Shown here: piece after piece, positions 20,958 to 61,107 of the stretch
Numbering within the stretch: position 1 is the stretch's first letter
Layout: each line of letters begins with the position of its first letter
Assembly (NCBI GenBank): GCA_943787795.1
Contig: CALSNU010000001.1
Coordinates: 192,001 to 256,000 of the forward strand
DNA length: 64,000 nucleotides
Reading direction: 5' to 3'
Origin: an uncultured bacterium
GTDB taxonomy: Bacteria > Planctomycetota > UBA1135 > GCA-002686595
Program-made: the position numbers and the translations under genes
The notes under the pieces: model-generated
The model's database searches: none
What the model saw: only the letters and a program-made list of their open reading frames with translations
Told to the model about the DNA's origin: nothing

Positions 20958-22247
20958 ATGATCTCGACCCCCGAACACGACTTCGACGCCATCGTCATCG
21001 GCGGCGGCCCGGCGGGCTGCGCCGCGGCGACCGTGCTGGCCAAGAAGGGCCGCCGGGTGGCGGTTCTCGAGAAGCAGCCGCGCCGGCGCTACAGCGTCGG
21101 TGAGTCGCTGATCCCCTTCTGCTATGACGCGCTCGAGCGCATGGGGCTCGCGGGGGCCCTCGAGAAGCAGCGCTTCTCCTTCCCGAAGCACAGCGTCCAG
21201 TTCGCGAGCCAGGAGGGGAAGGTCAGCCGGTCCTTCTACTTCTTCCAGCACACCGACCACCCCCGCGCCAAGACCTGGCAGGTGGTGCGCTCGGAGTTCG
21301 ACAAGCTCCTCCGGGACAACGCCGAGGAGAGCGGCGTGCAGTTCTTCGAGCAGACCCGCGCCCGGGAGCTGATCTTCGGGGACCGCTGCGAGGTCCAGGG
21401 TGTGCGGGCCAACGACCCCGCGGGCTACGAGCTGACCTTCAAGGCGCCCGTGACCATCGACGCCACCGGCCGGGACACGTTCTCCCAGAGCCGGCTCGGC
21501 TGGCGTGTGCCGGACAAGAAGCTCCGGAAGATGGCCATCTGGACCTATTTCGAGGGCGCCACCCGGGACGAGGGCTACGACGAGGGCACCACGACCATCG
21601 CGTACCTGCCCAACAAGGGCTGGTTCTGGAACATCCCGCTGCCCGACGATCGGGTCTCGGTGGGGCTGGTCGCGGACAAGGACTACCTCTTCGGCGAGAC
21701 CAAGGACCTGGAGACGATCTTTAGCCGTGAGGTGGAGAAGCAGGACTGGCTCCGCGGACGGCTCGAGGACGCCCGCCGCACCGATGAGTTCCGCGTCACC
21801 TCCGATTTCTCGTACCGCTCGAAGCACTGCGCCAGCGACGGGCTCGTTCTGATCGGCGACGCCTTCTCCTTCCTCGACCCGGTGTTCTCCTCGGGCGTCT
21901 ACTTCGCCCTGACCAGCGGCGTGCTCGCCGCGGACGCGGTGGACGACGCGCTGACCGCTGGGGACACCTCGGCGGGCCGCTTCGCCGAGTATGGCGAGGC
22001 GTTCAAGAAGCAGATGGAGCCCATGCGGAAGCTGGTCTACGCCTTCTATGACGACCACTTCAGCTTCGGTAAGTTCCTGAAGGAGCACCCCGACCTGCGT
22101 CCCCAGGTGACCGACGTCCTGATCGGCGACCTGGAGAAGGACTACGACGACTTCTTCGAGGTCATGGGGAAGTTCGCGGACCTGCCCGAGCCCCTCCCGC
22201 ACGGGGAGCCCATCGGGGCGGACACAACGCACTCCGAACACGCCTAG
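20958..22247 (+). CDS. FAD-dependent halogenase-like / geranylgeranyl-reductase-superfamily oxidoreductase
   Basis: GGGPAG FAD motif, GESL, WFWNIP (WxWxIP), GDAFSFLDPVFSSGV. Confidence 0.8.
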   Translation: MISTPEHDFDAIVIGGGPAGCAAATVLAKKGRRVAVLEKQPRRRYSVGESLIPFCYDALERMGLAGALEKQRFSFPKHSVQFASQEGKVSRSFYFFQHTDHPRAKTWQVVRSEFDKLLRDNAEESGVQFFEQTRARELIFGDRCEVQGVRANDPAGYELTFKAPVTIDATGRDTFSQSRLGWRVPDKKLRKMAIWTYFEGATRDEGYDEGTTTIAYLPNKGWFWNIPLPDDRVSVGLVADKDYLFGETKDLETIFSREVEKQDWLRGRLEDARRTDEFRVTSDFSYRSKHCASDGLVLIGDAFSFLDPVFSSGVYFALTSGVLAADAVDDALTAGDTSAGRFAEYGEAFKKQMEPMRKLVYAFYDDHFSFGKFLKEHPDLRPQVTDVLIGDLEKDYDDFFEVMGKFADLPEPLPHGEPIGADTTHSEHA

Positions 22248-22301
22248 TCCCGGGGCCGATGACCGCGTTCGGGCGGCGGACCCTAGACTCTTGGGCCGCC
22301 C

Positions 22302-22793
22302 ATGTGCCCCTCCGACGTCTTCCTCCCCTTCGAGCGCGCGCGCTTCAAGACGCGCCTCCCGCGCGGGCACTTCTACACCGCCGGACACATGTGGCTTCAC
22401 CAGGCCGAGCCGGACCTGTGGCACGTGGGGCTGACCCGCTTCGCCCTGCGGATGCTCGGTGAGCCGGTGGACCTGGATTTCGAGATGGCCCTGGAGACCG
22501 AGGTCGAGAAGGGCGACGTGGTGGGCTGGCTGGAGGGCTTCAAGGCGGTGACGGATCTCTACAGCCCCATCGACGGCAGGTTCGCCGGCGCGAACCCCGC
22601 CCTCGACGAGGGCCTCGACGCGGTCCACCGCTCCTCCTACCAGCGCGGCTGGCTCTTCGCCCTGCGGGGCAAGGTGGACGAGGACTGCGTGGACGCCGAG
22701 GGCTACGCGGCGGTCCTCGAGGCGGCCATCGACAAGGTGCTCGGGGAGCAGCCCGAGCTCGCCGAGGCCGAGGAGGGTGCGAGCCATGGCTGA
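22302..22793 (+). CDS. Glycine-cleavage H-protein-like lipoyl carrier (orphan)
   Basis: YT.GHMW, VGLT.FA...LGE, LEGFKAVTDLYSPIDG (lipoyl-Lys position kept), Y.RGWLF. Confidence 0.8.
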   Translation: MCPSDVFLPFERARFKTRLPRGHFYTAGHMWLHQAEPDLWHVGLTRFALRMLGEPVDLDFEMALETEVEKGDVVGWLEGFKAVTDLYSPIDGRFAGANPALDEGLDAVHRSSYQRGWLFALRGKVDEDCVDAEGYAAVLEAAIDKVLGEQPELAEAEEGASHG

Positions 22794-23919
22794 GGACACC
22801 CGCGCCACCTACGTCATGATCGGCGGCTTCCTCGGGGCGGGGAAGACCACCGCCGTGGCCCGCATGGGGGCGGCGCTCACCGAGCGCGGCCTCAAGGTCG
22901 GGCTCATCACCAACGATCAGAGCTCCGGCCTCGTGGACACCTCCATCCTGCGCAGCCGCGGCTTCGCCGTGGAGGAGATCGCGGGGGGGTGCTTCTGCTG
23001 CCGCTTTGGGTCCCTGGCCGAGGCCGCCGAGCGGCTCGAGGCCAACGAGCGCCCCGACGTGTTTCTCGCGGAGCCGGTGGGGAGCTGCACGGACCTGGTG
23101 GCCACGGTGAGCTACCCGCTGCGCCGGATCTACGGCGACCGCTTCCGGGTCGCGCCGCTCTCGGTGCTCGTGGACCCCCAGCGCGCGCGGCGGGTCCTGG
23201 GGCTCGCGGCGGGGCGACGTTTCTCGGAGAAGGTGACCTACGTCTTCGAGAAGCAGCTCGAGGAGGCGGCCCTGATCGTCATCAACAAGGTGGACACCCT
23301 GGGGTCCGAGGAGCTGACGGAGCTTGAGGCGGCCCTGGCCGCGCGCTTCCCCGGTGCGAGGGTCCTCTCGGTCTCCGCGGAGCACGGGCGGGGGACGGAG
23401 GGATGGTTCGACCAGATCCTGGCCGAGGAGGCGGAGCCCCAGCCGACCATGGAGCTGGACTACACGACCTATGCCGAAGGCGAGGCCTTGCTGGGCTGGC
23501 TCAACCTCACGGCCCGGCTGTCTACTGATGGCGAGCCGGTGGACGCGAACCAGCTGCTCCTCGACCTCGCTGCGCGGATCCAGCGCGCCGCGGGCGAGCA
23601 AGACGCGGAGATCGCTCACCTCAAGGCGACCCTCGACGCGGGCGACGCGTCGGGGCGGCTGGCAGCCCTGTCGGTGACCTCCGGCGACGGAGAGGTGGAC
23701 CTGCGGGAGGCGCTGGTCGACGGCGTGCGCGCCGGCGAGCTCATCGTCAACCTCCGAGCGGAGGGCGATCCGGCGATCCTCAGGGCCATGGTGCTGGCGG
23801 CCCTCGAGACCGAAGCGGCCGCGCGTCCGGGCTGCACCCTTGAAGTGGAGCACGAGGAGCACTTCCGGCCCGCGCCGCCCGAGCCCACACACCGCGACGA
23901 GATCCGAGGGAGCGCCTGA
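22786..23919 (+). CDS. CobW/COG0523 G3E metallochaperone GTPase
   Basis: GGFLGAGKTT, GGCFCC (CxCC), EPVG, NKVD; SD AGGAGG upstream. Confidence 0.85.
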   Translation: MAEDTRATYVMIGGFLGAGKTTAVARMGAALTERGLKVGLITNDQSSGLVDTSILRSRGFAVEEIAGGCFCCRFGSLAEAAERLEANERPDVFLAEPVGSCTDLVATVSYPLRRIYGDRFRVAPLSVLVDPQRARRVLGLAAGRRFSEKVTYVFEKQLEEAALIVINKVDTLGSEELTELEAALAARFPGARVLSVSAEHGRGTEGWFDQILAEEAEPQPTMELDYTTYAEGEALLGWLNLTARLSTDGEPVDANQLLLDLAARIQRAAGEQDAEIAHLKATLDAGDASGRLAALSVTSGDGEVDLREALVDGVRAGELIVNLRAEGDPAILRAMVLAALETEAAARPGCTLEVEHEEHFRPAPPEPTHRDEIRGSA

Positions 23920-23922
23920 CCC

Positions 23923-24261
23923 ATGAGCCGCCGCATCGTCCACTGCCACTGCGTCTACTCGAAGGTGGTCCCCGCCGACGTGAAGGCCGCCGTCCTCGAG
24001 CGCCTCGCGGGCTCGGACGCGGACTTCGAGGCGGTCCCCGACCTGTGCGAGATGTCAGCGGGCAAGGACCCGGCGCTGGCGCGCTTCGCCGGGGACGGCG
24101 AGGTGGAGATCGTGGCCTGCTTCCCGCGCGCCGTTCGATGGCTCTTCCACTCTGCGGGTCACGATCTGGCTGCGGAGGCTAGCATCCACAACATGCGATC
24201 ATCGACGGCTGACGAGGTCTGCGGGGCCCTGGGCCTTCCGGACGGGGAGAGCGCCTCTTGA
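23923..24261 (+). CDS. Small Cys-rich protein resembling the HdrA N-terminal domain
   Basis: CHC...DLCE...VACFPRA spacing. Confidence 0.55.
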   Translation: MSRRIVHCHCVYSKVVPADVKAAVLERLAGSDADFEAVPDLCEMSAGKDPALARFAGDGEVEIVACFPRAVRWLFHSAGHDLAAEASIHNMRSSTADEVCGALGLPDGESAS

Positions 24262-25112
24262 AGCCGCGCGAGGCTGCCCGTCCGGGCCCGAGCGCGCCCT
24301 TCGGCGAGCTCCACGTCACCGTGGAGCCGGGGGGCTTCGACGGCGTGGACGCCGCCGGCCGTGGAGCGGTCCTCGCTGCGCTGCTGGAGGCGGGGCACCC
24401 CGTCTCCCGTAAGGCCGGCGCGGGCGAGGGAGCCCTCGCACGCCTGGGCGGCGACGTGGGCGTCTTGGACCGCGCACCCGAGCAGGTGGTCGAGGACGTG
24501 GCTGCGCGGCGTGAGGCCGCCGCGGCGCCGGCGCCGGGAGCGTGGACGCCGTGGTTCCCGGTCATCGACTACGACCGCTGCACGAACTGCATGCAGTGCC
24601 TCTCCTTCTGCCTGTTCGACGTGTACTCGGTGGACGGCGACGGCCGGATCACGGTCCAGAACCAGGAGAAGTGCAAGACCAGCTGCCCTGCCTGCAGCCG
24701 CGTCTGCCCCGAGGTCGCGATCCTCTTCCCCAAGTACAAGAAGGGACCCATCAACGGGGACGAGGTCAAGGCCGAGGACATCGCGTCGGAGTCCATGAAG
24801 GTGGACATCTCCTCGCTCCTGGGCGGCGACATCTACTCGGCCCTCAAGGAGCGCAGCGGCTCGGCCAAGCAGCGCTTCTCCACCGAGCGGGACGAGTCCA
24901 AGGCCCTCCTGGAGCGCAAGCGCTGCCTGAAGGAGCTCAAGGACAAGCTCGACATCCCCTCGGAGGTCCTCATGAGCCTGCCGAGCGCAGGGGACATCGA
25001 GGAGCGAGCGCGACGCGCCCGCGCCAAGCAGGAGGAGCGCATCGCGCGCTCCCGCTCGGCCCAGGACCAGAAGAAGACCGAAGGTCCGAGCACCCAGGAG
25101 TGGGACATTTGA
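24258..25112 (+). CDS. 2x[4Fe-4S] ferredoxin-domain protein
   Basis: CTNCMQCLSFC and CKTSCPACSRVCP; TTG start overlaps the upstream TGA. Confidence 0.8.
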   Translation: MKPREAARPGPSAPFGELHVTVEPGGFDGVDAAGRGAVLAALLEAGHPVSRKAGAGEGALARLGGDVGVLDRAPEQVVEDVAARREAAAAPAPGAWTPWFPVIDYDRCTNCMQCLSFCLFDVYSVDGDGRITVQNQEKCKTSCPACSRVCPEVAILFPKYKKGPINGDEVKAEDIASESMKVDISSLLGGDIYSALKERSGSAKQRFSTERDESKALLERKRCLKELKDKLDIPSEVLMSLPSAGDIEERARRARAKQEERIARSRSAQDQKKTEGPSTQEWDI

Positions 25113-26305
25113 GCGCCGCCCTCGCCATGCGCGTCCTCCGCACGACCTCCCCGAAGGTCCAGTGGAAGTTCGCCTACAACTTCGGCTGGAAGGGCATGCG
25201 CAGCGTGCAGCGCTTCAAGAGCCGCCTCAAGGAGGGGAAGGTCTTCCCGCCCTTCCTCTACATCTCGATCATCAACTCCTGCAACCTGCGCTGCCGCGGG
25301 TGCTGGGTGGACGTCGCGGCGCCCCAGAAGAAGATCAGCTTCGAGGACTTCGACCGCATGGTCACCAACGCCAAGAAGCACGGGAACCGCTTCTTCGGCA
25401 TCCTCGGTGGGGAGCCATTCCTGCACCCTGACCTGATGCGCATGCTCGCGGCGCACCCGGACTGCTACTTCCAGATCTTCACCAACGGGCAGCCGATCAC
25501 CGACGAGGTGGCCGCCGAGCTCGCGCGCCTCGGCAACGCGACGCCGCTCATCAGCGTCGAGGGCGACACCGTCGAGAGCGACGCGCGCCGCGGGCGCACG
25601 GACGTCTACGACAAGACCCTCGCGGGCATCGAGGCGGCGCTGCGACACAAGCTCCTGGTGGGCGTGGCGTCCAGCGTGTGCGCCACCAACTACGACCAGC
25701 TCGTGCGCGAGGAGTGGGTGGACAAGCTCATCGATCTGGGCGTGCACTACTGCTGGTTCCACACCTACCGCGCCGTGGGGCCAGACGCCGCCCCCGAGCT
25801 GGCGCTGACCCCCGAGCAGATCCGCAGCACCCGCCAGTTCGCCGTGGACATGCGCAACCGCAAGGCCATCGGCTTCGTGGACGCCTACTGGGACGACAAG
25901 GGCCAGGCCCTGTGCCCCGCTGCCATCGGGATCAGCCACCACATCTCGCCCTACGGGGACGTGGAGCCCTGCCCGATCGTCCAGTACGCCACCGAGCGCA
26001 TCCAGGACAACGACGGCGACATCTACAAGACGCTCACCGAGTCCAAGATGCTCGAGGACTTCCGGCGCACCGCCGCGGAGACCACCCGAGGCTGCATCGT
26101 GCTCGAGGCCCCCGACAAGCTGGCCGAGGTGGGCCGGCGCCACGGCGCCCGCGACACCACCGCCCGGGGCGACGCCTTCGAAGAATATGACCGGATGGAG
26201 TCCCGGCCGAGCCAGCACGACCCGGGCAATGAGATCCCCGAGAAGCACTGGATGTATCGCTTCGCCAAGAAGCACTGGTTCTTCGGGTTCGGCGCCTACA
26301 CCTGA
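25109..26305 (+). CDS. Radical SAM protein with SPASM/twitch-like C-terminus
   Basis: CNLRCRGC, GGEP, FTNG, ISVEG, CPAA..HISPYGDVEPCP. Confidence 0.88.
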   Translation: MSAALAMRVLRTTSPKVQWKFAYNFGWKGMRSVQRFKSRLKEGKVFPPFLYISIINSCNLRCRGCWVDVAAPQKKISFEDFDRMVTNAKKHGNRFFGILGGEPFLHPDLMRMLAAHPDCYFQIFTNGQPITDEVAAELARLGNATPLISVEGDTVESDARRGRTDVYDKTLAGIEAALRHKLLVGVASSVCATNYDQLVREEWVDKLIDLGVHYCWFHTYRAVGPDAAPELALTPEQIRSTRQFAVDMRNRKAIGFVDAYWDDKGQALCPAAIGISHHISPYGDVEPCPIVQYATERIQDNDGDIYKTLTESKMLEDFRRTAAETTRGCIVLEAPDKLAEVGRRHGARDTTARGDAFEEYDRMESRPSQHDPGNEIPEKHWMYRFAKKHWFFGFGAYT

Positions 26306-26419: not shown

Positions 26420-28273
26420 ATGAACCCGCCCCCCGATCCCGCCACCGCCTCCCCCGACGCGCCGACCGAGGCCGCTCCGGAGGCGACCCCCGCGATCCGG
26501 AGCACCCTCTCCGGCGGCGAGACCCGGGTGCAGCTACCCCGCCGTTTGCCCATCGTCCGTGAGCGCACGACCCAGTCCAACATCCCGAACGAGCGCGCCA
26601 CCCGCGACCGTTTGCGGAGCCTCGCCGCGGCGCTGGTCGCCGAGCGAGCGGTCGTCGCACCCGCCTCGATCCTGCAGCTGCGGGAGCTGGCCGTGGAGGT
26701 CATCCGGCGCGCCGATGTGGACGACGTCTTCATCGACTACACCGCGGTCCTCCTGAACAACGAGGTCTGGCGGGACGAGCTGGCCCAGGTGCCCTACGAG
26801 CGGCGCCTGCTGCTCCTCCCCAAGTGCCTGCGGGTCGAGGAACACTGCCCCGCCCCCTTCGACGAGTTCGGGATGCTGTGCAAGGAGTGCGGCCTGTGCT
26901 CCATCGAGGACTTCACGCGCGAGGCCGAGGAGCTCGGCTACGCGGTGCTCATCGCAGAGGGCTCGGCCATCGTCACGGCCATGGTGGAGACCGGCAAGAT
27001 CGACGCCATCGTGGGGGTCTCTTGCCTCAACGTGCTGGAGAAGTGCTTCCCGCACATGGAGCGGGTGGCGATCCCGGGCATGTCGATCCCGCTGCTCCAG
27101 GACGACTGCATCGACACGAACGTGGACGTGGACCAGGTCCGCGACCTCATTCACCTCACCGCCGAGGACCGCACCTACCGCCTCGACCTCGAGGGGCTCA
27201 AGGGCGACGTCCGCGCCTGGTTCAAGCGCGACGCGCTGGACGAGGTCATGGGCCCCGCCGCCGGGGTGGACCCCGCCACGGACGACCTGGCACGGGACTG
27301 GCTCGCGCGCGACGGCAAGCGCTGGCGACCCTATCTCGCGACCGCGATCTGGATGGCCCTGGAGAGCGAGGGCCGCGCCGAGGCGCCGGCCTTCACCGCG
27401 GACGTGCGCAAGCTCGCGGTGGCCATCGAATGCTTCCACAAGGCGTCGCTGATCCACGACGACATCGAGGACGGGGACGACGTGCGCTACGGCGCGCCCA
27501 CGCTGCACGCCGAGCACGGCGTCGCGGTGGCCATCAACATCGGGGACCTGCTCCTCGGTGAGGGCTACCGCCTGCTGGGCGAGCTCGAGGTCGTGGGTGA
27601 GACCCGCGCCCAGCTCCTGTCCGTCGCGGCCCAGGGCCACGCGACGCTCTCGCGCGGCCAGGGCGCCGAGCTCAACTGGGCACGGGCGCCGCGGCCCCTC
27701 AGCTCCCTGGAGGTCCTCGGGATCTTCCGGGAGAAGACGGCGCCGGCCTTCGAGGTCGCCCTGCGCCAGGGCGCGCTCCTCGCGGGCGCCGCGCCGGAGG
27801 TGCTCGAGGTGCTCGGGCCTTACAGCGAGGCCCTCGGCATCGCCTACCAGATCCACGATGACCTGGACGACTTCACCGGCGAGGGCGACTCGGACGACCT
27901 GGCCGACCTGCGCCCCTCGCTGATCATGGCCATCGCCCACAAGCGGGCGGCCGGCGGCGATGCCGAGGCCATGCTGGACGCGATCTGGCGCAAGGAGCGC
28001 CCCGTGGGCTCCCCCGGCTCCGACGAGCGGCTGGCCCTGGAGGCGCGCCTTGGGGAGTGGGGCGTCGTCCAGAAGGCCCGCGACCTCGCGGACGCCTACG
28101 AGGTGGCGGCGGTGGAGTCGCTGACACCGCTCCAGCACCCCAGCGTCAAGGGGCTCCTGCGCCGGGTCGTGGGCAAGATCTTCGGGGAGGGTGACCTCAT
28201 CGAGGGCTACTGCTCCGAGTTCGAGGCGCTGAACCGGTCTCGCCAGGAAGAGGCGCCGAAGACGACCGCTTGA
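26420..28273 (+). CDS. DUF116-like Cys-rich domain fused to a trans-isoprenyl diphosphate synthase
   Basis: N-terminal RLLLLPKCLR..CPA..CKECGLC..VGVSC..C; C-terminal GKRWRP, DDIED (FARM), GQ, KT, DDLDD (SARM). Confidence 0.88.
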   Translation: MNPPPDPATASPDAPTEAAPEATPAIRSTLSGGETRVQLPRRLPIVRERTTQSNIPNERATRDRLRSLAAALVAERAVVAPASILQLRELAVEVIRRADVDDVFIDYTAVLLNNEVWRDELAQVPYERRLLLLPKCLRVEEHCPAPFDEFGMLCKECGLCSIEDFTREAEELGYAVLIAEGSAIVTAMVETGKIDAIVGVSCLNVLEKCFPHMERVAIPGMSIPLLQDDCIDTNVDVDQVRDLIHLTAEDRTYRLDLEGLKGDVRAWFKRDALDEVMGPAAGVDPATDDLARDWLARDGKRWRPYLATAIWMALESEGRAEAPAFTADVRKLAVAIECFHKASLIHDDIEDGDDVRYGAPTLHAEHGVAVAINIGDLLLGEGYRLLGELEVVGETRAQLLSVAAQGHATLSRGQGAELNWARAPRPLSSLEVLGIFREKTAPAFEVALRQGALLAGAAPEVLEVLGPYSEALGIAYQIHDDLDDFTGEGDSDDLADLRPSLIMAIAHKRAAGGDAEAMLDAIWRKERPVGSPGSDERLALEARLGEWGVVQKARDLADAYEVAAVESLTPLQHPSVKGLLRRVVGKIFGEGDLIEGYCSEFEALNRSRQEEAPKTTA

Positions 28274-29148
28274 GCCTCCGCCTCGAGATGCTGCAGGTGG
28301 CCCGGCTCGCGCCGGGTGTGCTTGGTGGAGCCACGCCAAAGGTGGCAGAGTTCGTGCGCTCGCAGCTCACCGCCGAGGGCGGGGGCATGGATCGCGCCGG
28401 GAAGCCGGACCTCTACTACACGGCGTTCCTGCTCGATGCGCTGGTCGCGCTCTCGGAGGAGCTGCCCGCCGACCAGGTGCGCCCCTACCTCCAGACGTTC
28501 GGTGACGGGGAGGACCTTGACCTGGTGCACCGCGCGTGCCTGGTGCGTTGTTGGGCCGCCCTGGGAGAGGGCTGGCCGAGTGAGACCTTTGTCAGCTCGA
28601 TCACCGAGCACCTCGCGCGCTGCCGGAGCGCAGACGGCTCCTTCGGCATGGACCCAGGCCGCGCGCGCGGCACGCTCTACGACGCGTTCCTCGCGCTCGG
28701 CGTCTACCAGGACCTGGGTGTCCCGATGCCCGCGCCGGTGGTGCTCGGCGCGGCCATGGTGGAGCTCCGAACGCCGGATGGCGGCTTCTCCAACGAGAGC
28801 GAGCTGAGGTGGGGGATGGGTCCCTCCACCGCCGCGGCGGTCGCGGTCCTCTCTCAGCTCGAGCTCCCGGTGCCCGACGACGTCGCCCCCTGGCTCCTCT
28901 CGCAGATCCATCCCAAGGGCGGCTTCAAGGCGATTCCCGACGCGCCCATGCCGGACCTGCTCTCCACGGCGACGATCCTCCACGCCCTGGGGATCCTCGG
29001 CGCGGACATCGGGGGCGCGAAGGAGCTGTGCCTCGACTACCTCGACACCCTCTGGAACGGCCAGAGCTTCTACGGCCACTGGGCCGAGGAGGAGCTGGAC
29101 GTGGAGTACACCTTCTACGCGCTGCTCGCCCTCGGGCACCTGTCCTGA
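28270..29148 (+). CDS. Prenyltransferase/squalene-oxidase-repeat (alpha-alpha barrel) protein
   Basis: QW-like repeats (QLTAEGG, RSADGSF, RTPDGGF, QIHPKGGF); DLYYT and DVEYTFY. Confidence 0.75.
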   Translation: MSLRLEMLQVARLAPGVLGGATPKVAEFVRSQLTAEGGGMDRAGKPDLYYTAFLLDALVALSEELPADQVRPYLQTFGDGEDLDLVHRACLVRCWAALGEGWPSETFVSSITEHLARCRSADGSFGMDPGRARGTLYDAFLALGVYQDLGVPMPAPVVLGAAMVELRTPDGGFSNESELRWGMGPSTAAAVAVLSQLELPVPDDVAPWLLSQIHPKGGFKAIPDAPMPDLLSTATILHALGILGADIGGAKELCLDYLDTLWNGQSFYGHWAEEELDVEYTFYALLALGHLS

Positions 29149-31759: not shown

Positions 31760-33646
31760 ATGGGGGCACCCCTCGATCCCGACGGCCTCCTCTGGCTCGA
31801 CGACGCGCTCGGCCGGGCGCGGGCGTCGCTGCTCGATCGCCGCGGAGACGCCGGCCATTGGAGGGGGGAGCTCTCCTCCAGCGCGCTCTCCACCTCCACG
31901 GCGGTGGCGGCCCTGGCGGGCGCGGCCGGCGCCCTCCCCGTCGGGTCTCCCGAGCGCGCCGACCTCCAGGGGCTCGCCGAGCGCGGACGGGCATGGCTCG
32001 CCGCGAACCCGTCCCCGGACGGCGGCTTCGGGGACACCACCGATTCCCCGAGCAACCTCTCCACCACCGCGCTCGCGTGGATGGCGCTCGGGCCGGGCCT
32101 CGGGCTGCCCGCCGACGAGGCCGTGGAGCGGGCGTGGACCCGCGCGGACGGCTGGCTCAGGGAGGCCCTGGGCGGGGCGCGCCCGGACTCCACTCGCCTC
32201 GCGGCTGCGCTGGAGGAGATCTACGGCGAGGACCGCACCTTCGCCGTGCCGATCCTGGCGGCCTGCACCATCGGTGGCGCCTTCGCGGAGGACCCCGACC
32301 CCTGGAGGGTGGTGCGCCCCCTGCCCTTCGAGGTCGCGGCGCTGCCCCAGGGGCTGTTCCGGTTCCTGGGTCTCCCGGTCGTGAGCTACGCGCTGCCTGC
32401 GCTGATCGCCATCGGCCAGGGGATCGCCCACCACCGGCCGAGCCGCAACCCCGTCGCTCGCCTCCTGCGCCGGGCCCTGGCGCCGCGCACGCTCCGGGTG
32501 CTCACGGGGATCCAGCCCGAGAACGGCGGCTTCCTCGAGGCGACGCCGCTCACGAGCTTCGTCACGCTCTCCCTGGTGGCGATCGGCGAGGTCCAACATC
32601 AGGTGGTCTCCCGGGGCCTCTCGTTCCTTCGGGCGTCCGTCCGCGCGGACGGGTCCTGGCCCATTGACACCGACCTCGCCACCTGGGGGACGACCCTCTC
32701 GGTGGGGGCGCTCGGCGCGGGCTTCGAGGGCGCCGAGCGCATCAAGGGGTGGCTCCTCGATCAGCAGCACACCGTGCGGCACCCGTTCACCGGCGCGGCC
32801 CCGGGGGGCTGGGCCTGGACCGACCTCCCCGGCGGCGTGCCGGACGCGGACGACACGCCGGGAGCCCTGATCGCCCTCCGACTCCTCGAGGGGGACACGC
32901 CCTCGCCCGGGGCGCGCGCGGCGGCCGCCGCGGGGCTCCGCTGGTTGGTCGATCTGCAGAACCGGGACGGCGGCATCCCGACCTTCTGCAGGGGGTGGGG
33001 CCGGCTCCCCTTCGACCAGAGCTGCGCGGACCTCACCGCCCATGCGCTGCGGGCGTTCGACGTGTGGGAGGGTGCACTCGGTGGGGCGGCGGCGGAGGAC
33101 CTCGGCCGCCGGATGGAGCGAGCGCGGGCCCGGGCCGTCGGGTTCCTCGTCCGGCGGCAGTCCCCCGACGGCTCGTGGACCCCGCTCTGGTTCGGCAACC
33201 AGGAGCACCCGGAGAAGCTCAACCCCCTCTACGGCACCAGCCGCGTCCTGCGCGCGGCCGGGGTTCGGGTCGCCGGAGGATCCGCCGAGGGCTGGCGGGC
33301 CGCCCTCGAGCGGGGGGCCGCGTGGCTGCGGTCCGCCCAGGGCGCCGACGGCGGCTTCGGCGGCGCCCCGGGGCTCACCCCGACCGTCGAGGAGACCGGC
33401 CTCGCGCTCGAGGCCCTGGTGGACCTCGTGGAGGCTGGCCTGGGGGAGGAGGGTGACCTCGACCGGGTCCGCCGCGCCGCCCGCTGGCTCACCGAGCGGA
33501 CCGACGGCGGCCGATCGTTCCCGCGCACGCCCATCGGGCTCTACTTCGCGCAGCTCTGGTACCACGAGGAGCTCTACCCGGTGGTCTTCACCGCCTCCGG
33601 CCTCGGCGCCGCGCGCCGGCTCCTGGGGCCGTCAGCCCGGAGTTGA
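31760..33646 (+). CDS. Class II terpene cyclase (squalene-hopene cyclase-like, divergent)
   Basis: GHWRGEL; GGWAW...PDADDT (DxDD); LQNRDGG; QSPDGSW..LWFG; QGADGGFG; ET..AL.AL; IGLYFA.LWY. Confidence 0.85.
   Translation: MGAPLDPDGLLWLDDALGRARASLLDRRGDAGHWRGELSSSALSTSTAVAALAGAAGALPVGSPERADLQGLAERGRAWLAANPSPDGGFGDTTDSPSNLSTTALAWMALGPGLGLPADEAVERAWTRADGWLREALGGARPDSTRLAAALEEIYGEDRTFAVPILAACTIGGAFAEDPDPWRVVRPLPFEVAALPQGLFRFLGLPVVSYALPALIAIGQGIAHHRPSRNPVARLLRRALAPRTLRVLTGIQPENGGFLEATPLTSFVTLSLVAIGEVQHQVVSRGLSFLRASVRADGSWPIDTDLATWGTTLSVGALGAGFEGAERIKGWLLDQQHTVRHPFTGAAPGGWAWTDLPGGVPDADDTPGALIALRLLEGDTPSPGARAAAAAGLRWLVDLQNRDGGIPTFCRGWGRLPFDQSCADLTAHALRAFDVWEGALGGAAAEDLGRRMERARARAVGFLVRRQSPDGSWTPLWFGNQEHPEKLNPLYGTSRVLRAAGVRVAGGSAEGWRAALERGAAWLRSAQGADGGFGGAPGLTPTVEETGLALEALVDLVEAGLGEEGDLDRVRRAARWLTERTDGGRSFPRTPIGLYFAQLWYHEELYPVVFTASGLGAARRLLGPSARS
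33464..33626 (+). repeat. Direct repeat copy 1 (3' end of the cyclase gene)
   Basis: 163 bp, highly similar to 34202-34364 (offset 738). Confidence 0.92.
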
Positions 33647-36532: not shown

Positions 36533-36566
36533 CTGCGGCTTCCGGCTGCGGCTTCCGGCTGCGGCT
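36533..36566. repeat. 13-bp tandem repeat (CTGCGGCTTCCGG, about 2.6 copies) between convergent genes
   Basis: Direct reading. Confidence 0.6.
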
Positions 36567-51310: not shown

Positions 51311-52543
51311 ATGCTGTCACTTCTCTTAGCGCTCGCCGTCGGGGCCCCCGACTGGCCCGACTTCCGAGGCCCCGGGCGGGACGGGCACGCGGACGGCGTG
51401 GACCTCCCCATGTCATGGAGCGAGGAGGAGCACGTGGTCTGGAAGACCGCGATCCACGGTCGGGGCTGGTCCTCACCGGTGTTGCTGGAGGGGCGCGCGT
51501 GGCTGACCACGGCGCCGTCCAAGGGCGGCGCGCTCTCCGTCATCGCCGTGGACCTTGACTCCGGAGAGGTCGTGGTGGATCGGGTGGTGTTCGAGGTCGC
51601 CGAGCCGGAGCCCCGCAACGGTCTCAACAGCTACGCCTCGCCGAGCCCGGTGGTGGCGGAAGGGCGGGTCTTCGTGCACTTCGGGACCTACGGCACCGCG
51701 TGCCTGGACGCGGAGACCGGCGAGACCGTCTGGTCGAGGACGGACCTGAAGTGCGATCACCTCGAGGGCCCCGGGTCGTCCCCGCTCTTGCAGGACGGGC
51801 GCCTCTTCCTCCACCTCGATGGCGCCGACGTCCAGTACCTCGTGGCGCTCGACCCGAAGACCGGGGAGACCCTGTGGAGAACGGAGCGGACCGCGGACCT
51901 CGAGCCCCTCGCGCCCGACTTCCGCAAGGCGTATAGCACGCCGCTGCTCACCACGATGAAGGGAGCGGAGGGGCCCCGGCCGGTGCTGATCAGCTCCGCC
52001 GCGCGGGCCACCTACGGGTATGACCCCGCCACCGGCGCCGAGCTCTGGAGGATGGATCACCCCGGCTTCTCCATGGCGTCGCGGCCGCTGCTCGTGGACG
52101 ACAAGCTCTACGTCTCCACGGGCTTCATGCGCCCCGAGCTGTGGGCCTTCAAGATCGGGGGCGCCGGCAACATCACGGACGACGCCTTCCTGTGGCGCAA
52201 CACCCGCGGCGTCCCGACCATGCCCTCCTCCGTGATCGTCGGCGGGCTCCTGTTCCAGGTCAGCGATCGCGGGATGGCGTCAGCGGTGGACCTCGAGACG
52301 GGTGAGACGCGCTGGCAAGAGCGGCTCGGTGAGAGCCACTGCGCCTCGCTGCTCGCGAGCGGCGACCGCATCTACGCCTTCGGCGTGGAGGGCAAGTCCT
52401 CCGTCTTCCGGGCCAGCGGGAGCTTCGAGAAGCTCGCGGAGGGTCAGCTCGAGGCGGGCTTCATGGCCTCGCCGGCGGTGCTCGGCGACGCGCTCATCCT
52501 GCGGACGAAGACTCACCTCTACCGGATCGAGGCGGCGCAGTGA
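51311..52543 (+). CDS. Secreted PQQ-like beta-propeller protein
   Basis: DWPDFRGP, GWSSPV, NSYASPSP, LRT.THLYRI. Confidence 0.85.
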   Translation: MLSLLLALAVGAPDWPDFRGPGRDGHADGVDLPMSWSEEEHVVWKTAIHGRGWSSPVLLEGRAWLTTAPSKGGALSVIAVDLDSGEVVVDRVVFEVAEPEPRNGLNSYASPSPVVAEGRVFVHFGTYGTACLDAETGETVWSRTDLKCDHLEGPGSSPLLQDGRLFLHLDGADVQYLVALDPKTGETLWRTERTADLEPLAPDFRKAYSTPLLTTMKGAEGPRPVLISSAARATYGYDPATGAELWRMDHPGFSMASRPLLVDDKLYVSTGFMRPELWAFKIGGAGNITDDAFLWRNTRGVPTMPSSVIVGGLLFQVSDRGMASAVDLETGETRWQERLGESHCASLLASGDRIYAFGVEGKSSVFRASGSFEKLAEGQLEAGFMASPAVLGDALILRTKTHLYRIEAAQ

Positions 52544-53553
52544 AGGCGCTCACCTTCCAGGGGATCAAGGACGTCGCCTGCACGGAGGCGCCTGACCCGA
52601 CCATCGAGCAGCCCACGGACGCCATCGTGCGCGTGGAGCTTTCGGCCATCTGCGGCTCGGACCTGCACGTGTACCGTGGGGCCGAGGCGGGCCTCGACCG
52701 CGGGACGGTGCTGGGGCACGAGTTCGCCGGCGAGGTCCTGGAGGTGGGCAGCGCCGTGGAGGGGATCGTCCCGGGGGACCGGGTCGTCGCGCCCTTCTCC
52801 ACCAGCTGCGGCGCCTGCCCCGCGTGCGAGCGCGGGCTCAGCTCGCGGTGCGAGTTGGGGCAGCTGTTCGGGTGGGTCGAGGGTGGCCAGGGGCTCCACG
52901 GAGGCCAGGCAGAGCTCGTGCGCGTGCCCCTCGCCGGGAGCTCCCTGGTCAAGGTGGAGGACGGCCGCGACCCGGCGGCGCTCTTCGCCGGGGACGTGAT
53001 GTCCACCGGGATGTTCCTCGCCGCGCTCGGTGGGGTCGGCCCCGGCGACCGGGTGGCCGTCATCGGCTGCGGCCCGGTGGGCCTGATGGCCGTGGTCGCC
53101 GCCCTCGACATGGGCGCCGCCGAGGTGTTCGCGCTGGACCTGCTGGAGGACCGCCTCGAGCTCGCGCGGTCGTTTGGCGCCACGCCCGTCCTGGCCTCGG
53201 ATCCGGCTCAGCTCCCGTCTGCGGTGGACGCCTCCCTCGAGGCGGTGGGGTCGCCCTCCTCCACCCGCCTGGCCTTCGATCTGCTGCGGCCCGGTGGGAC
53301 CCTCGCGGCGGCGGGCGTTCACGTGGAGCCGCAGCTCGCGTTCTCGCCCGGCGAGGCCTACGACAAGAACCTGACCTATCGCGCCGGCCGCTCTCCGGCG
53401 CGGAGCCTCCTCGAGCCGGCGCTGGAGCTGGCCACGCGCAGCGGCGTGGACCGCATCGTGTCCCACCGGATCCCGCTGGCCGAGGCCGCCCACGGCTACC
53501 GGATCTTCGACGGTCGGCTCGACGGCGCGACCAAGGTGCTCCTGGAGCCCTGA
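52540..53553 (+). CDS. Zinc-dependent alcohol dehydrogenase (MDR family)
   Basis: ICGSDLH, GHE, CG.C..C...C, GCGPVG. Confidence 0.9.
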   Translation: MKALTFQGIKDVACTEAPDPTIEQPTDAIVRVELSAICGSDLHVYRGAEAGLDRGTVLGHEFAGEVLEVGSAVEGIVPGDRVVAPFSTSCGACPACERGLSSRCELGQLFGWVEGGQGLHGGQAELVRVPLAGSSLVKVEDGRDPAALFAGDVMSTGMFLAALGGVGPGDRVAVIGCGPVGLMAVVAALDMGAAEVFALDLLEDRLELARSFGATPVLASDPAQLPSAVDASLEAVGSPSSTRLAFDLLRPGGTLAAAGVHVEPQLAFSPGEAYDKNLTYRAGRSPARSLLEPALELATRSGVDRIVSHRIPLAEAAHGYRIFDGRLDGATKVLLEP

Positions 53554-57229: not shown

Positions 57230-58432
57230 ATGCTGATGGTCATGGTTCCCTGGGTCACGCTGCCCCTCGCGGGTGCGATCGGCGCCGCCGCCCCCGCTCT
57301 CGCTGGAGTGGACCCGGTCGCGGCCTCGGTGGAGGTCCCCGCCTCCGAGGAGGAGTGGCCGCTCTTTCGAGGTGACAGTCACCTGTCAGGGATCGCGTCC
57401 AGCGCGCTCCCCGCGGACCTCGAGCTCAGCTGGACCTACGATGCTGGAAAGGCGATCACGTCCTCTCCGGTGGTCGCCGGTGGCCGGGTCTTCTTCGGGG
57501 CCGACGACCATGCGGTCCACTGCGCCGACGCGAGCAGCGGAGAGCCCGTTTGGAAGTTCATGACCGAGGACCTCGTGGAGGCGCCGCCGCTGGTCCTCGA
57601 CGGGACCGTCTTCATCGGGAGTAACGACACCTTCTTCTACGCCATCGACGCCGCGACCGGCGAGCTCCGCTGGAAGGCGCCGACCATGGACAAGATCCTC
57701 GGCGGCGCCAACCACGTGTCGGTGGGGGAGCGCTCCGTGGTGGTCGTGGGGTCCTACGACAATCGCCTGTACGCCTTCGATGCGAAGACGGGTGAGCAGC
57801 TCTGGGCCTACGAGACCGACAACTACGTGAACGGCACCCCGGCCATCGACGAGGGGCGCGCGATCTTCGGCGGCTGCGACGCCATCCTGCACGTGGTGGA
57901 CGTCACGGTCGGCAAGCGGGCCGCCGCGGTCGAGCTGGGTGGCGACAGCCACATTGCGGGCTCCGCGGCCTTCCTGGGAGGACGGGCGTACTTCGGCCAC
58001 TACGGCAACCAGTTCGTGTGCGTGGACGTGGCGAAGGGCGAGGTGGTCTGGGCGTATGACTCACCGCGGCAGGCCTTCTTCTCCTCCCCGGCGATCACCG
58101 ACGACCTGGTGGTGTTCGGCGGCCGAGACCGGCATCTGCACTGCGTGCGCCGCGAGACCGGCGAGCCCGTCTGGAAGTTCCGGACCCGCCGCAAGGTGGA
58201 CGGCTCCCCGGTGGTCGCCGGCGACGCCGTGGTGTTCGGCTCCGATGATGGCCGGATGTACATGCTCGGCCTGCAGGACGGCGCCCAGCGCTGGAGCTAC
58301 GACATCGGCGAGCCTGTGCTCTCCTCGCCCGCGGTTGTGAACGGCCGGGTGTACGTGGGCGCCAACGACGGCCAGCTCTACTGCTTCGCCGCTCCTACGG
58401 CCGAGCTCAAGGACGCAGAGGTGGACCGTTGA
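57230..58432 (+). CDS. Secreted PQQ-like/BamB-like beta-propeller protein
   Basis: EWPLFRGD; about eight regular SSP...G.V..G..DG..Y..D..TG...W repeats. Confidence 0.85.
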   Translation: MLMVMVPWVTLPLAGAIGAAAPALAGVDPVAASVEVPASEEEWPLFRGDSHLSGIASSALPADLELSWTYDAGKAITSSPVVAGGRVFFGADDHAVHCADASSGEPVWKFMTEDLVEAPPLVLDGTVFIGSNDTFFYAIDAATGELRWKAPTMDKILGGANHVSVGERSVVVVGSYDNRLYAFDAKTGEQLWAYETDNYVNGTPAIDEGRAIFGGCDAILHVVDVTVGKRAAAVELGGDSHIAGSAAFLGGRAYFGHYGNQFVCVDVAKGEVVWAYDSPRQAFFSSPAITDDLVVFGGRDRHLHCVRRETGEPVWKFRTRRKVDGSPVVAGDAVVFGSDDGRMYMLGLQDGAQRWSYDIGEPVLSSPAVVNGRVYVGANDGQLYCFAAPTAELKDAEVDR

Positions 58433-59775
58433 AGCGGCTGGACGACAACGCGAGCGGAGAGGGCGCACAGCGTGAGGCGGCGGAGAAGACCACCGTCGGC
58501 AACTACTTCATCTCCAACTACCCGCCGTATTCCTTCTGGAACGAGGAGGCGCTGGGCTCGCTGGAGGGCTGCCTGCAGTCCGCGCCGGCGGACGATCGAC
58601 CGCTCGGTCTCTACGTCCACATCCCCTTCTGCCGCAAGCGCTGCGACTTCTGCTACTTCAAGGTCTACACGGACAAGAACTCCAAGGAGGTCCGCCGGTA
58701 CCTCTCGGGGGTCGCGAGCGAGCTCGACAACTACGCGGATGTTCCGTACCTGAAGGGCCGCAGCCCGCGCTTCGTGTACTTCGGTGGGGGCACGCCCAGC
58801 TACCTCTCCACGGGCCAGCTCGAGGAGCTCTTCGGAGCCCTCCGCGAGCGGATCGACTGGTCCGACGTGGAGGAGGTGACCTTCGAGTGCGAGCCGGGGA
58901 CCCTCTCGCTGCCCAAGCTGCAGACCCTGCGCGACCTCGGGGTGACGCGCCTCTCCCTGGGCGTGGAGAACTTCAACCCGGCCATCCTCGAGCGCAATAA
59001 TCGGGCGCACCGGGCCGAGGAGATCGTGCGCACCTACGGCTTCGCCCGCGAGGTCGGGTTCCCGCAGGTGAACATCGACCTGATCGCCGGGATGATCGGC
59101 GAGACCGACGAGAACTGGGCGCACTGCATCGAGCGCACCCTGGAGCTCGGGCCCGACAGCGTGACGATCTATCAGATGGAGGTGCCCTACAACACGACCA
59201 TCTATCGCCGCATGAAGGACGACGAGACCGAGGAGGCGCCGGTGGCTGACTGGGCCACCAAGCGCCGCTGGGTCCGGGAGGCCTTCGCCGCCCTCGGCGA
59301 GGCCGGCTTCGAGCAGTCCAGCGCCTACACCGCGTACCGGGGCGGCGGGACGAGCTTCCTCTACCGGGACTCCCTCTGGCACGGCGCGGACATGCTGGGC
59401 CTCGGCGTCTCGTCCTTCTCGCACCTGGGCGGGATCCACTTCCAGAACGAGCCGTCCTTCGGCGGCTACCTCGACCGCGCGGAGCGGGGCGAGCGACCGA
59501 TCTCGCGGGCCTACGCCCTCGGGGACGACGAGCGGCTCATCCGCGAGTTCATCCTCCAGCTGAAGACCGGCACCGTCGACGCCGGCGCCTTCCGCTCCAA
59601 GTTCGAGGTGGACCCTCTGACGCGCTTCGCCGGCGCGCTGGCGGACCACGAGGCGGCTGGCATGCTGACCGTGGAGGGGGACCAGATCCGGACCACTCCC
59701 GACGGGCTCCTGGTGGTGGACACGCTCCTGCCGGCGTTCTTCCGTCCCGAGCACATCTCTGACCGCTACGTCTGA
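58429..59775 (+). CDS. HemN-like radical SAM enzyme
   Basis: LYVHIPFCRKRCDFCYF, YFGGGTPS, RLS.GV, N.DLI.G, GLG.SS.S. Confidence 0.88.
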   Translation: MKRLDDNASGEGAQREAAEKTTVGNYFISNYPPYSFWNEEALGSLEGCLQSAPADDRPLGLYVHIPFCRKRCDFCYFKVYTDKNSKEVRRYLSGVASELDNYADVPYLKGRSPRFVYFGGGTPSYLSTGQLEELFGALRERIDWSDVEEVTFECEPGTLSLPKLQTLRDLGVTRLSLGVENFNPAILERNNRAHRAEEIVRTYGFAREVGFPQVNIDLIAGMIGETDENWAHCIERTLELGPDSVTIYQMEVPYNTTIYRRMKDDETEEAPVADWATKRRWVREAFAALGEAGFEQSSAYTAYRGGGTSFLYRDSLWHGADMLGLGVSSFSHLGGIHFQNEPSFGGYLDRAERGERPISRAYALGDDERLIREFILQLKTGTVDAGAFRSKFEVDPLTRFAGALADHEAAGMLTVEGDQIRTTPDGLLVVDTLLPAFFRPEHISDRYV

Positions 59776-59790
59776 GCGCCCCGCGGCCCC

Positions 59791-61107
59791 GTGCGGATCC
59801 TCCAGCTGACCCCCGGCACCGGCGACTTCCTGTGCGGGAGTTGCCTGCGCGACAACTCCCTGGTCATGGGCCTGCGGGATCGCGGTCACGACGCGCTGAT
59901 CGCGCCGCTCTACCTGCCCTTCGCCATGGAGGACGGCTCGGTCGACGCCGCGCGGCCGGGGGAGATCGAGCCCACGATCCACATGGGCGGGATCAACGTC
60001 TTCCTGCAGCAGAAGCTCGGCCTCTTCCGGTGGCTGCCGCGGGTCCTGCACGACCGGCTCGACTCGCCGCGGCTGCTGCGCTGGGCGGCGGGCCACTCGA
60101 AGATGACCGAGACGCCGGGGCTCGGGGCGCTGACGCTGTCCATGCTCCGGGGCGAGGAGGGCCGCCAGCGCGCCGAGGTCGCGCGGCTGGTGGAGTGGGC
60201 GCGGGAGCTGCCCCGCCCCGACGTGCTCCTGCTCTCCAACGTGATGCTCATCGGGCTGGCCCGGGAGCTCAAGGCGGCCCTCGGCTGTCCCGTGGTCTGC
60301 ACCATGCAGGGGGAGGCGCCCTTCCTCGAGGCCCTGGACGACGGGCACCGTGAGCGCTGCTGGGCGACGCTCGCGGAGCGCGCCCGGGACGTGGACGGGT
60401 TCCTCGCCGTGAGCCAGTACACCGCTGACCTGATGTCCTCCCGCATGGAGGTGGACCCGGCGAAGGTGCAGGTGGTGTGGAACGGCGGCGACCTCGAGGG
60501 GATCGCGCCGGACCCCGGCCGCCGTGACCCCGAGCGGCCTGCGATCGGCTACCTGGCCCGCATGTGCCGCGACAAGGGCATCGAGGCCCTGGTGGAGGGC
60601 TTCCTGCACCTCAAGGAGCGTCACCCCCGGGCCCGCCTGGTGGCGGCAGGGGTGGTGCTGAACGAGGACCGCGAGCTCCTCCAGCGGCTGGAGCAGCGCG
60701 TGGCGGGGGCCGGCTGGGCGGCTGACGTGGAGCTCCTCGGCCCGGTCACCCGCGAGCAGAAGATCGATCTCCTCCAGCGGGTCGACGTCCTGAGCGTCCC
60801 TGCGGTCTACGGCGAGTCCTTTGGTCTCTACCTCCCCGAGGCCTGGGCCGCGGGACTCCCCGTGGTGCAGCCCCGCCACGGGGGCTTCACCGAGCTGGTG
60901 GAGCACACCGGCGCTGGGGTCCTCTACGAACCCGGCGACCCTGAGGCCCTCGCGGGCGCCCTCGGAGACCTGCTCGACGACCCCCTCCGGCGGTCCGCGC
61001 TCGGTGAGCAGGGCCGCGCGGCCGCAGCCGAGGACTTCACGCGCGAACGCATGGCCGAGCGCGTCGAAGCGGCGCTGGGTCAGGTGCTGGAATCAGCGGC
61101 CGGCTAG
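59791..61107 (+). CDS. Glycosyltransferase family 4
   Basis: KG...L, ESFGLY..EA.A.G.PVV (ExFG...E); N-terminal CGSC. Confidence 0.85.
   Translation: MRILQLTPGTGDFLCGSCLRDNSLVMGLRDRGHDALIAPLYLPFAMEDGSVDAARPGEIEPTIHMGGINVFLQQKLGLFRWLPRVLHDRLDSPRLLRWAAGHSKMTETPGLGALTLSMLRGEEGRQRAEVARLVEWARELPRPDVLLLSNVMLIGLARELKAALGCPVVCTMQGEAPFLEALDDGHRERCWATLAERARDVDGFLAVSQYTADLMSSRMEVDPAKVQVVWNGGDLEGIAPDPGRRDPERPAIGYLARMCRDKGIEALVEGFLHLKERHPRARLVAAGVVLNEDRELLQRLEQRVAGAGWAADVELLGPVTREQKIDLLQRVDVLSVPAVYGESFGLYLPEAWAAGLPVVQPRHGGFTELVEHTGAGVLYEPGDPEALAGALGDLLDDPLRRSALGEQGRAAAAEDFTRERMAERVEAALGQVLESAAG

Follow-up and report, generated by a model that had tools for sequence, protein, structure and literature searches.

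Gene content of the locus

The window analysed here is a stretch of 64,000 nucleotides from an uncultured planctomycete (genome G000, the genome under study, 85% complete; G000:C1:192001-256000, ~70% GC), and plain coordinates below are positions within it. It carries three co-oriented gene blocks, A, B and C, which, judged from sequence, belong to a real, widespread and uncharacterised modular pathway of Planctomycetota and Verrucomicrobiota. Read most economically, a hub fed by an aryl arm and a terpene arm would glycosylate and export a product, all of the chemistry being predicted.

Coding open reading frames (ORFs) were chosen by the GC content of their codon positions (GC3), and 44 ORFs of the window were scanned against Pfam and NCBIfam. 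Every gene that the initial annotation of this DNA had named in the three blocks was recovered on the plus strand, about where it had been placed, with coding-type GC3 and, A4 apart, the family match claimed for it, and the overlapping stop and start codons that it described are real at A2/A3, A4/A5, A7/A8, B1/B2, B3/B4, B5/B6 and C1/C2. Starts were corrected to 22786 (CobW), 25127 (radical S-adenosylmethionine (SAM) enzyme), 31760 (cyclase), 43555 (sodium:solute symporter, SSS), 46240 (a TTG; EhpG-like) and 47706 (iron-containing alcohol dehydrogenase). By tblastn, A1, A2, A4-A8, B5-B7 and the full-length cyclase are present in one copy each in G000. The Rfam scan of the window gave no match, and the promoter and terminator scan of 20500-40000 gave nothing exceeding chance. 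The blocks do not hold as natural units: in other genomes the A1 flavoprotein groups with B and C, and the cysteine desulfurase IscS groups with A. Based on this operon arrangement in relatives, we place A1 in the aryl arm and group IscS with the terpene arm. The terpene arm is listed first.

22302..22793 (+): A2, GcvH-like carrier (PF01597; lipoyl-site Lys present)
22786..23919 (+): A3, CobW-like GTPase metallochaperone (PF02492 and synteny; missing from some variants)
23923..24261 (+): A4, small four-Cys protein (C8, C10, C42 and C66 invariant in 7/7)
24258..25112 (+): A5, 2x[4Fe-4S] ferredoxin-domain protein (Fer4 families)
25127..26305 (+): A6, radical SAM enzyme (PF04055)
26420..28273 (+): A7, fusion of Cys-rich DUF116 and trans-polyprenyl diphosphate synthase (PF01976 + PF00348)
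28270..29148 (+): A8, single alpha/alpha toroid without DxDD (PF00432)
31760..33646 (+): A9, two-domain class II terpene cyclase, 628 aa (PF13243/PF13249; DxDD intact, PDADDT)
37885..39153 (+): IscS-type cysteine desulfurase (NCBIfam; true start possibly further downstream)

The lipoyl-site Lys of A2 is conserved in an 11-row alignment that covers both arm types; the GcvH-like gene itself occurs in both, IscS and CobW alone being add-ons. A4, previously labelled HdrA-N-like, has no Pfam, NCBIfam or meaningful PDB match, which leaves that label unconfirmed; it probably binds an iron-sulfur cluster, as its four cysteines suggest, and is apparently fused to A5 in some relatives, with one 348-aa ORF at this place in locus L107. 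A6 is swapped for a different radical SAM enzyme in operons without the EhpF-like gene of the aryl arm. One such replacement, a 541-aa protein with a long unannotated N-terminal domain (L137:17069-18694), has related ORFs in six loci. In A7, KASL(I/V/L)HDD stands ahead of the first Asp motif in 28/28 motif matches, and the small residues before that motif suggest a product of C20 or longer.

The model of A8 (predicted local distance difference test, pLDDT, 96) has as its nearest folds the beta subunits of protein prenyltransferases (template-modelling (TM) score 0.67-0.68) and the monodomain cyclases 8paj/8pak (TM 0.63-0.66), and A8 bears the catalytic signature of neither. No invariant Cys or His that could serve as Zn ligand is found in 13 aligned rows, and the cluster holds no alpha subunit. 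The cyclase A9 keeps D362, D364 and D365 in 15/15 sequences and scores far under the cut-offs for squalene-hopene cyclase (SHC) and oxidosqualene cyclase, with 57 bits against a TIGR01507 cut-off of 431; it probably falls in the 'SHC-like' clade. Many genomes carry A2-A9 with IscS as an operon of its own, and IscS adjoins A2 or A9 in G041, G042, G147, G077, G091, G103, G304, G329 and G020. In G042 (L096-L097) the terpene-arm genes are broken by several frameshifts or stops, the mark of an assembly error or of decay.

The aryl arm is listed with the two propellers of block B.

20958..22247 (+): A1, flavin-dependent halogenase-like enzyme (best PDB matches the halogenases 3e1t, ChlB4, CmlS and PltA)
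39402..41648 (+): B1, secreted propeller resembling those that bind pyrroloquinoline quinone (PQQ) (PF13360)
41641..43293 (+): B2, secreted PQQ-like propeller (conserved H248, H274, H309, H405 and many acidic residues)
43301..43555 (+): B3, DUF3311 small symporter subunit (PF11755)
43555..45138 (+): B4, sodium:solute symporter (PF00474)
45161..46243 (+): B5, EhpF/GriC-like adenylating enzyme (EhpF 3l2k/3hgu matched over full length, E 9e-40)
46240..47694 (+): B6, EhpG/GriD-like acyl reductase of aldehyde dehydrogenase (ALDH) fold (catalytic Cys present, GRSC; His at the general-base Glu position)
47706..48878 (+): B7, iron-containing alcohol dehydrogenase (PF00465; top NCBIfam ErcA, under its cut-off)
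58429..59775 (+): C2, HemN-like (class C) radical SAM enzyme (Pfam/NCBIfam)

A1 retains GxGxxG, the catalytic Lys and WxWxIP in 18/18 aligned homologues, and by these motifs and its PDB neighbours it qualifies as a predicted flavin-dependent halogenase; in relatives it is located between a lyase-like gene, X, and the glycosyltransferase C3. B6 keeps the Cys and exchanges the Glu for His, as expected of an acyl reductase. B4, likely the importer of an acid, is swapped for an MFS transporter in 7 loci. A TonB-dependent receptor, which may import the acid or the product, lies upstream of B1 in 8 loci (L067:2188-4320 and seven others). The C-terminal domain of B1 has no Pfam match, and its lectin/DUF1080 label is an unconfirmed impression.

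X, found in 19 loci, has no Pfam match. Its model (187 aa, pLDDT 92) resembles DUF98 2nwi (TM 0.66) and chorismate lyase 1fw9 (TM 0.52), consistent with a chorismate-lyase fold that has no DNA-binding domain. The proposal that the pathway starts from an aromatic acid gains from the presence of such a gene within the operon of relatives; its biochemical part stays a prediction.

The EhpF-like core is also seen in other settings. In L050, a record labelled Deltaproteobacteria, DUF3311, SSS, EhpF-like and EhpG-like genes keep their order, and the aryl core may thus reach beyond the Planctomycetes-Verrucomicrobia-Chlamydiae (PVC) group. A distant EhpF-like gene (~35%) is found in 5/7 genomes of family f29 in another neighbourhood and without C2, A9 or C3 (e.g. 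L112:10586-11596, G065).

Two genes of block C are attributed to the hub.

57230..58432 (+): C1, secreted PQQ-like propeller (near the aryl arm and inside EhpF-less terpene operons)
59791..61107 (+): C3, GT4 glycosyltransferase with an N-terminal CxxC (family scan; tracks either arm)

The C15 and C18 residues of C3 are conserved among 28 aligned rows. The hub as we define it, with predicted function, consists of this CxxC-bearing GT4, the propeller C1 and an FtsX-type ATP-binding cassette (ABC) exporter. In G000 a thioesterase, a small membrane protein, the ABC ATPase and the FtsX permease lie at C1:291220-296374, the last two at G000:C1:292248-296374, ~35 kb past the window end.

Synteny and co-occurrence of the arms and the hub

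Synteny and co-occurrence across Planctomycetota and Verrucomicrobiota support well a link of the three blocks in one system, which the initial annotation had considered unproven, and we hold one shared system, its blocks linked through a common hub, to be very probable. A scan with a B5 alignment gave at least 598 confirmed matches; the 80 loci listed from it bear labels almost all of Planctomycetota and Verrucomicrobiota. EhpF-like candidates passing E<=1e-20 number at least 8,000, and the closest named B5 homologues among the matches listed are mostly Planctomycetota. Within 10 kb of B5 in these 80 loci, many of which are broken by contig ends, B2 is present in 57, B1 in 55, B6 in 53, B4 in 46, B7 in 37, C1 in 27, C2 in 23, C3 in 19 and A1 in 15, the propeller counts including cross-hits. 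The recurring order is B1-B7, C1, C2, X, A1, C3, thioesterase, small membrane protein, ABC ATPase and permease. The three blocks form one almost continuous run in G020, which belongs to another genus; the arms are physically joined there and in G091, G108 and L078, and lie far apart in several genomes.

The presence of genes was then compared in 111 Planctomycetota (G000 and 110 genomes at >=92% completeness) and 121 Verrucomicrobiae, at thresholds of our choice. B5 gave 36 matches at E<=1e-30 among the Planctomycetota, which a cut-off of E<=1e-100, set after the gap was visible, splits into 27 close (>=48% identity) and 9 distant ones (31-36%). C2 occurs in exactly the 27 genomes with a close B5, even where the genes are scattered, and A6 and X, each in 20/111, occur only within these 27. 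A9 is found in 23/111, and in the four genomes outside the 27 it stands beside C1, C3 or ABC genes. This last observation led us to predict C3 as the hub, and the presence test agreed: C3 is found in 30/31 Planctomycetota with B5 or A9 and in 0/80 of the others. Among the Verrucomicrobiae, where B5 is present in 16 genomes, A9 in 20 and both in 10, C3 occurs in 24/26 with either arm and in 1/95 with neither. Over both samples this amounts to 54/57 genomes with either arm against 1/175 with neither, the hub gene being carried by 30/111 and 25/121 of the sampled genomes. In a sample of 41 close relatives, A9 is present in 10, all within the 14 that have B5; in a wider sample of the Verrucomicrobiota phylum, just 2/91 genomes have B5.

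Each arm also exists alone. The aryl arm is found without the cyclase in 8/27 Planctomycetota, including the single-contig G138; the DUF116 synthase was not found in 4/5 aryl-only genomes, and the fifth, G117, has one. Conversely, 10/20 Verrucomicrobiae with the cyclase have no detected EhpF-like gene. Five EhpF-less genomes carry a compact operon of C1, GcvH-like, ferredoxin, the different radical SAM enzyme, cyclase, polyprenyl synthase, C3 and A8; in four of these and in G075 the search for C2 gave generic HemN-level matches only. Across 18 genomes, identity to G000 correlates within the arms, with rho 0.83-0.87 for B5/C2/C3 and 0.75 for A9/A6. Since each arm occurs alone and the two diverge differently, the linear route of the initial annotation, from acid to alcohol, prenylation, cyclisation and tailoring, finds no support as an obligatory one.

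The locus in G000 contains several further genes. Block A is interrupted at 29283-31691 by an 802-aa secreted protein which, with 18861-20753, belongs to a multi-copy secreted family (92 and 15 tblastn segments in G000, respectively) with a common C-terminal domain that has no Pfam match. The 3'-terminal 225 bases of the cyclase gene (33464-33688) recur at 34202-34422 with 85% identity, past a 148-aa orphan ORF (33747-34193); the repeat, which is present in G004 and not in G015, looks like the scar of an insertion. Farther on, 34862-36502 encodes a membrane protein with two repeated zinc-ribbon units and no firm family, and 49061-51262, after the iron-containing alcohol dehydrogenase, an SLC12-like cation-chloride cotransporter, which is near a halogenase-like gene and was seen in same-genus relatives only. 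Blocks B and C are parted at 53638-57008 by a minus-strand DegT-type aminotransferase and a protein bearing tetratricopeptide repeats, both found in same-genus relatives and not at this place in G020. The 340-aa ORF at 62155-63177 has no Pfam match, and we take it, by eye, to be leucyl-aminopeptidase-like. One further gene may be a local companion of the system.

52540..53553 (+): Zn-dependent alcohol dehydrogenase (Pfam; same place in G020, G015 and G004)

It was not seen in the 80 listed distant loci, and its membership in the system is uncertain. The accessible part of a P. limnophila supplement names, for COG1657, the gene Plim_0306, whose nearby tags (PulG, phosphoglycerate mutase) are unlike the cluster, and in the same part the list has no Plim entry for COG0635, 1454, 1012, 0142, 0523 or 0644; this hints weakly that the pathway, if carried there, is non-essential in that organism.

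Secreted propellers and a candidate product

Besides B1, B2 and C1, the window encodes two members of a dispersed propeller family.

36565..37851 (-): secreted PQQ-like propeller, dispersed WPxxRGP family (PF13360)
51311..52543 (+): secreted PQQ-like propeller, dispersed family (Pfam; between B7 and C1 in G020)

About 13 PQQ-like propellers are encoded in G000; in most of them a signal peptide can be seen and the sequence starts with WPxxRG. We followed the dispersed family in 15 hand-picked genomes, made up of G147, G047 and sets paired inside one genus and four families. All seven genomes with the pathway contain it, with 7, 14, 8, 5, 2, 11 and 7 matches, many of them far from the cluster, and it is absent from all eight negatives, including G012, a single-contig genome of 7.7 Mb from the same genus. 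B2-type propellers gave 3-9 matches in 4/5 terpene-only genomes and none in 10 negatives. With the quinoprotein dehydrogenase model TIGR03075, whose cut-off is 480 bits, the propellers reach 29-82 bits. No pqqC was found in five positive genomes, and the control was equally without a match. Among the neighbours of the propellers in G000 and G091 (36/80 neighbouring ORFs scanned) are 3-keto-disaccharide hydrolases, a ThuA protein, sulfatases, cytochrome-c-type PVC domains and oxidoreductases; both phyla commonly carry genes of these kinds, so this pattern is only a hint. The correlation between propellers and pathway is the most novel result of this work and the least well sampled.

As the propellers occur, among the genomes tested, only in those that carry the pathway, its product may be their missing cofactor. 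We propose a scheme in which 4-hydroxybenzoate or a close relative would be imported by B3/B4 or, in relatives, made from chorismate by the lyase-fold protein, a gene that G000 seems to be without. B5 would adenylate the acid, B6, by way of a Cys thioester, would reduce it to the aldehyde, and a further reduction by B7 would yield the benzyl alcohol, the ring of which could be tailored by C2, through radical methylation or C-C coupling, and by A1, through halogenation or hydroxylation. In the terpene arm, A7 would build a polyprenyl chain, joined head to tail and at least C20 in length, which A9 would cyclise through protonation of the terminal alkene. A6 may functionalise the terpene with electrons from A2/A4/A5 and with maturation by IscS and CobW, and A8 could transfer a prenyl unit or act as the partner of A9. 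The cyclised polyprenyl unit would serve as a membrane anchor. Finally, C3 would add a sugar, and the ABC ATPase and FtsX-type permease, with C1, would move the product to the periplasm. Genomes with both arms, such as G000, could make an anchored conjugate.

That the system makes and exports a glycosylated molecule serving as cofactor or ligand of the secreted propellers is our tentative reading, to which we give slightly less than an even chance. Its more specific form, an undescribed periplasmic redox cofactor derived from a hydroxybenzyl unit, glycosylated, optionally anchored by a polyprenyl unit that an SHC-like cyclase has cyclised, and replacing PQQ in the propellers, is possible but doubtful.

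Several observations weigh against these proposals. With either arm found alone, no one product can be common to all carriers, and terpene-only genomes leave little room for a redox head derived from 4-hydroxybenzoate, except by import. The correlation of identity between the arms is weak (0.17-0.42 in the same 18 genomes), which suggests a separate history of the terpene arm. None of the 44 scanned ORFs of the window is a UbiA prenyltransferase. X is absent from searches of G000, at its 85% completeness, and of six other B5-positive genomes, and UTRA ligand-binding domains score similarly to its fold. The propeller query came from inside the cluster, and some matches are its cluster-linked neighbours; the test covers just the 15 hand-picked genomes, with the C3 status covering five of the eight negatives, and the negative G059 carries a distant EhpF-like gene (34%). 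The dispersed propellers (27 sequences) share mostly structural motifs and no invariant catalytic set. Moreover, related genomes are not independent, and the Fisher values overstate significance.

The same linkage data fit one system whose product is instead a structural envelope glycolipid or a secreted metabolite, for instance an aryl glycoside or a substitute for hopanoids or sterols, which the propellers carry, bind or tailor; generic propellers without an obvious catalytic set suit this account. Hopanoid logic combines a polyprenyl synthase, a class II cyclase, a radical SAM enzyme, a glycosyltransferase and an exporter, all of which have counterparts here. A novel polycyclic terpenoid is, moreover, what would be expected from this cyclase clade, as far as the accessible text of PMC7306690 goes. 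We nevertheless regard a structural product as unlikely on balance, since it explains poorly the pathway-only occurrence of up to 14 dispersed propeller paralogues, and aryl-only genomes such as G138 do without the cyclase.

Independence of the arms, the weak correlation between them and their distance in several genomes would also be explained by two separate pathways, one for an aryl glycoside and one for an orphan terpenoid, that have a glycosyltransferase and exporter in common or in duplicate and travel together as hitchhikers in a genomic island; the passenger genes and the duplicated cyclase 3' end do attest local rearrangement in G000. This is improbable in our judgement: all positive genomes have one C3 match each at the threshold used, A6 never occurs without B5 in the 111 genomes, and co-occurrence holds even for scattered genes, something that hitchhiking would not preserve. 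Least probable of all is a protein modification that puts a prenyl, aryl or sugar group on the secreted propellers, with an FtsX/LolE-like ABC transporter trafficking them, because A8, although nearest in fold to protein prenyltransferase beta subunits, has no invariant Cys or His as Zn ligands and no alpha subunit in the cluster, the dispersed propellers have no invariant Cys (27 sequences), and the enzymes look cytoplasmic while the propellers bear signal peptides, even if the FtsX-type permease and the only-if distribution would suit substrates as well as users.

The glycosylated cofactor or ligand that we favour would bear on the function of the many secreted 'BamB/PQQ-like' propellers of planctomycetes and verrucomicrobia, and the cluster bears on the substrate and product of 'SHC-like' cyclases, with consequences for biomarker interpretation and cyclase evolution. 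The system is common and has no polyketide synthase or nonribosomal peptide synthetase core. If true, abundant degraders of polysaccharides would have a new cofactor or an anchored glycoconjugate, a matter of interest for microbial physiology, enzymology and the geochemistry of lipids.

Comparison with known systems

In the literature, taken without most subscription journals, we found no paper on the whole system, or connecting one arm with the other or either with the propellers, and by the tests made the cluster appears not to be of the hopanoid, phenazine, PQQ or phenalinolactone type. The initial annotation saw no hpnCDE/H/G, phz core or pqq genes in the window, and the Pfam scan of the 44 ORFs gave no match for squalene synthase, phz or pqq genes; a single SQS_PSY gene lies elsewhere in G000, at G000:C1:882010, unlinked to the cyclase.

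As candidates, we rejected a hopanoid (shc-hpn) cluster, because the window has no linked hpnCDE/squalene synthase or hpnH/G and A6 reaches 37 bits against an HpnH cut-off of 225, and a PQQ system for the propellers, which do not reach the quinoprotein dehydrogenase cut-off.

EhpG is the reductase partner of EhpF in the formation of D-alanylgriseoluteic acid. In the grixazone pathway, GriC adenylates and GriD reduces 3-amino-4-hydroxybenzoate, according to the accessible part of PMC10179220. The likeness lies in a short EhpF-type enzyme, B5, beside the ALDH fold of B6 with its Cys present and no general-base Glu; here, in contrast, the pair is coupled to an iron-containing alcohol dehydrogenase, a symporter, a radical SAM enzyme, a GT4, propellers and a terpene arm. 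No aminohydroxybenzoate genes were found in the window. Nor was phzA/B, by Pfam, in the window or in five genomes, where the control was equally without a match.

The function and product of the 'SHC-like' class II cyclase clade are stated as unknown in the accessible parts of PMC7306690 and PMC12324236. Compared with its description there, A9 is alike in its two domains, its size within the 550-700 aa range, the retained DxDD, the PVC distribution and the neighbouring polyprenyl synthase. Those parts of the two papers draw no link to GcvH, ferredoxin, radical SAM, GT4, an aryl arm or propellers.

In PlaT1-4 type cores (phenalinolactone, brasilicardin, atolypene and longestin), cyclisation follows prenylation of the acceptor, as the accessible text of PMC11317874 has it. 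By that account these cores share with our cluster a head-to-tail polyprenyl synthase and a class II cyclase, there of a sister clade, but PlaT3 is of UbiA type whereas A8 is an alpha/alpha toroid. They differ also in that A9 keeps the DxDD for alkene protonation, with no epoxidase evident in the terpene arm. For A8 itself, a PlaT3-like role was ruled out, given the UbiA type of PlaT3 (PMC11317874, same part), as was a protein prenyltransferase beta subunit, despite the similar fold, for want of Zn ligands and an alpha subunit.

The baaA-baaB locus has been proposed for 3,5-dibromo-p-anisic acid, an assignment made without a genetic test in the accessible part of the preprint (bioRxiv 10.1101/723874). 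There, a chorismate-lyase-like gene stands beside a flavin halogenase in a planctomycete, as in relatives of the present locus. Compared by that description, BaaB is ~44% similar to Bmp5 whereas A1 is nearest to the CndH/CmlS/PltA type, and the baa product retains its acid group. Alichondrichlorin was set aside as a model: the part of PMC11848864 at hand describes a 4-hydroxybenzoate ester of a straight chain, unlike a reduced, cyclised product. The nearest chemical precedent is MstE and the merosterols, which join a hydroxybenzoate-derived head to a cyclised C20 chain (PMC12324236, accessible text). MstE is a weak match of A8; it is a monodomain DxD enzyme, whereas here the DxDD enzyme is two-domain, A8 has no such motif, and the window has no UbiA.

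The organisation of the system as a whole also invites comparison with mycofactocin, whose cluster, like ours, includes a glycosyltransferase. Unlike mycofactocin and PQQ, our case shows no precursor peptide, has periplasmic propellers as partners and would draw on an aryl alcohol and a polyprenyl chain as building blocks. The only-if distribution of paralogues is what led Haft to predict mycofactocin, as told in the accessible part of PMC3023750, and on that account the likeness consists in a patchy cluster that has radical SAM and flavin genes and in dispersed paralogues that occur only where the cluster does.

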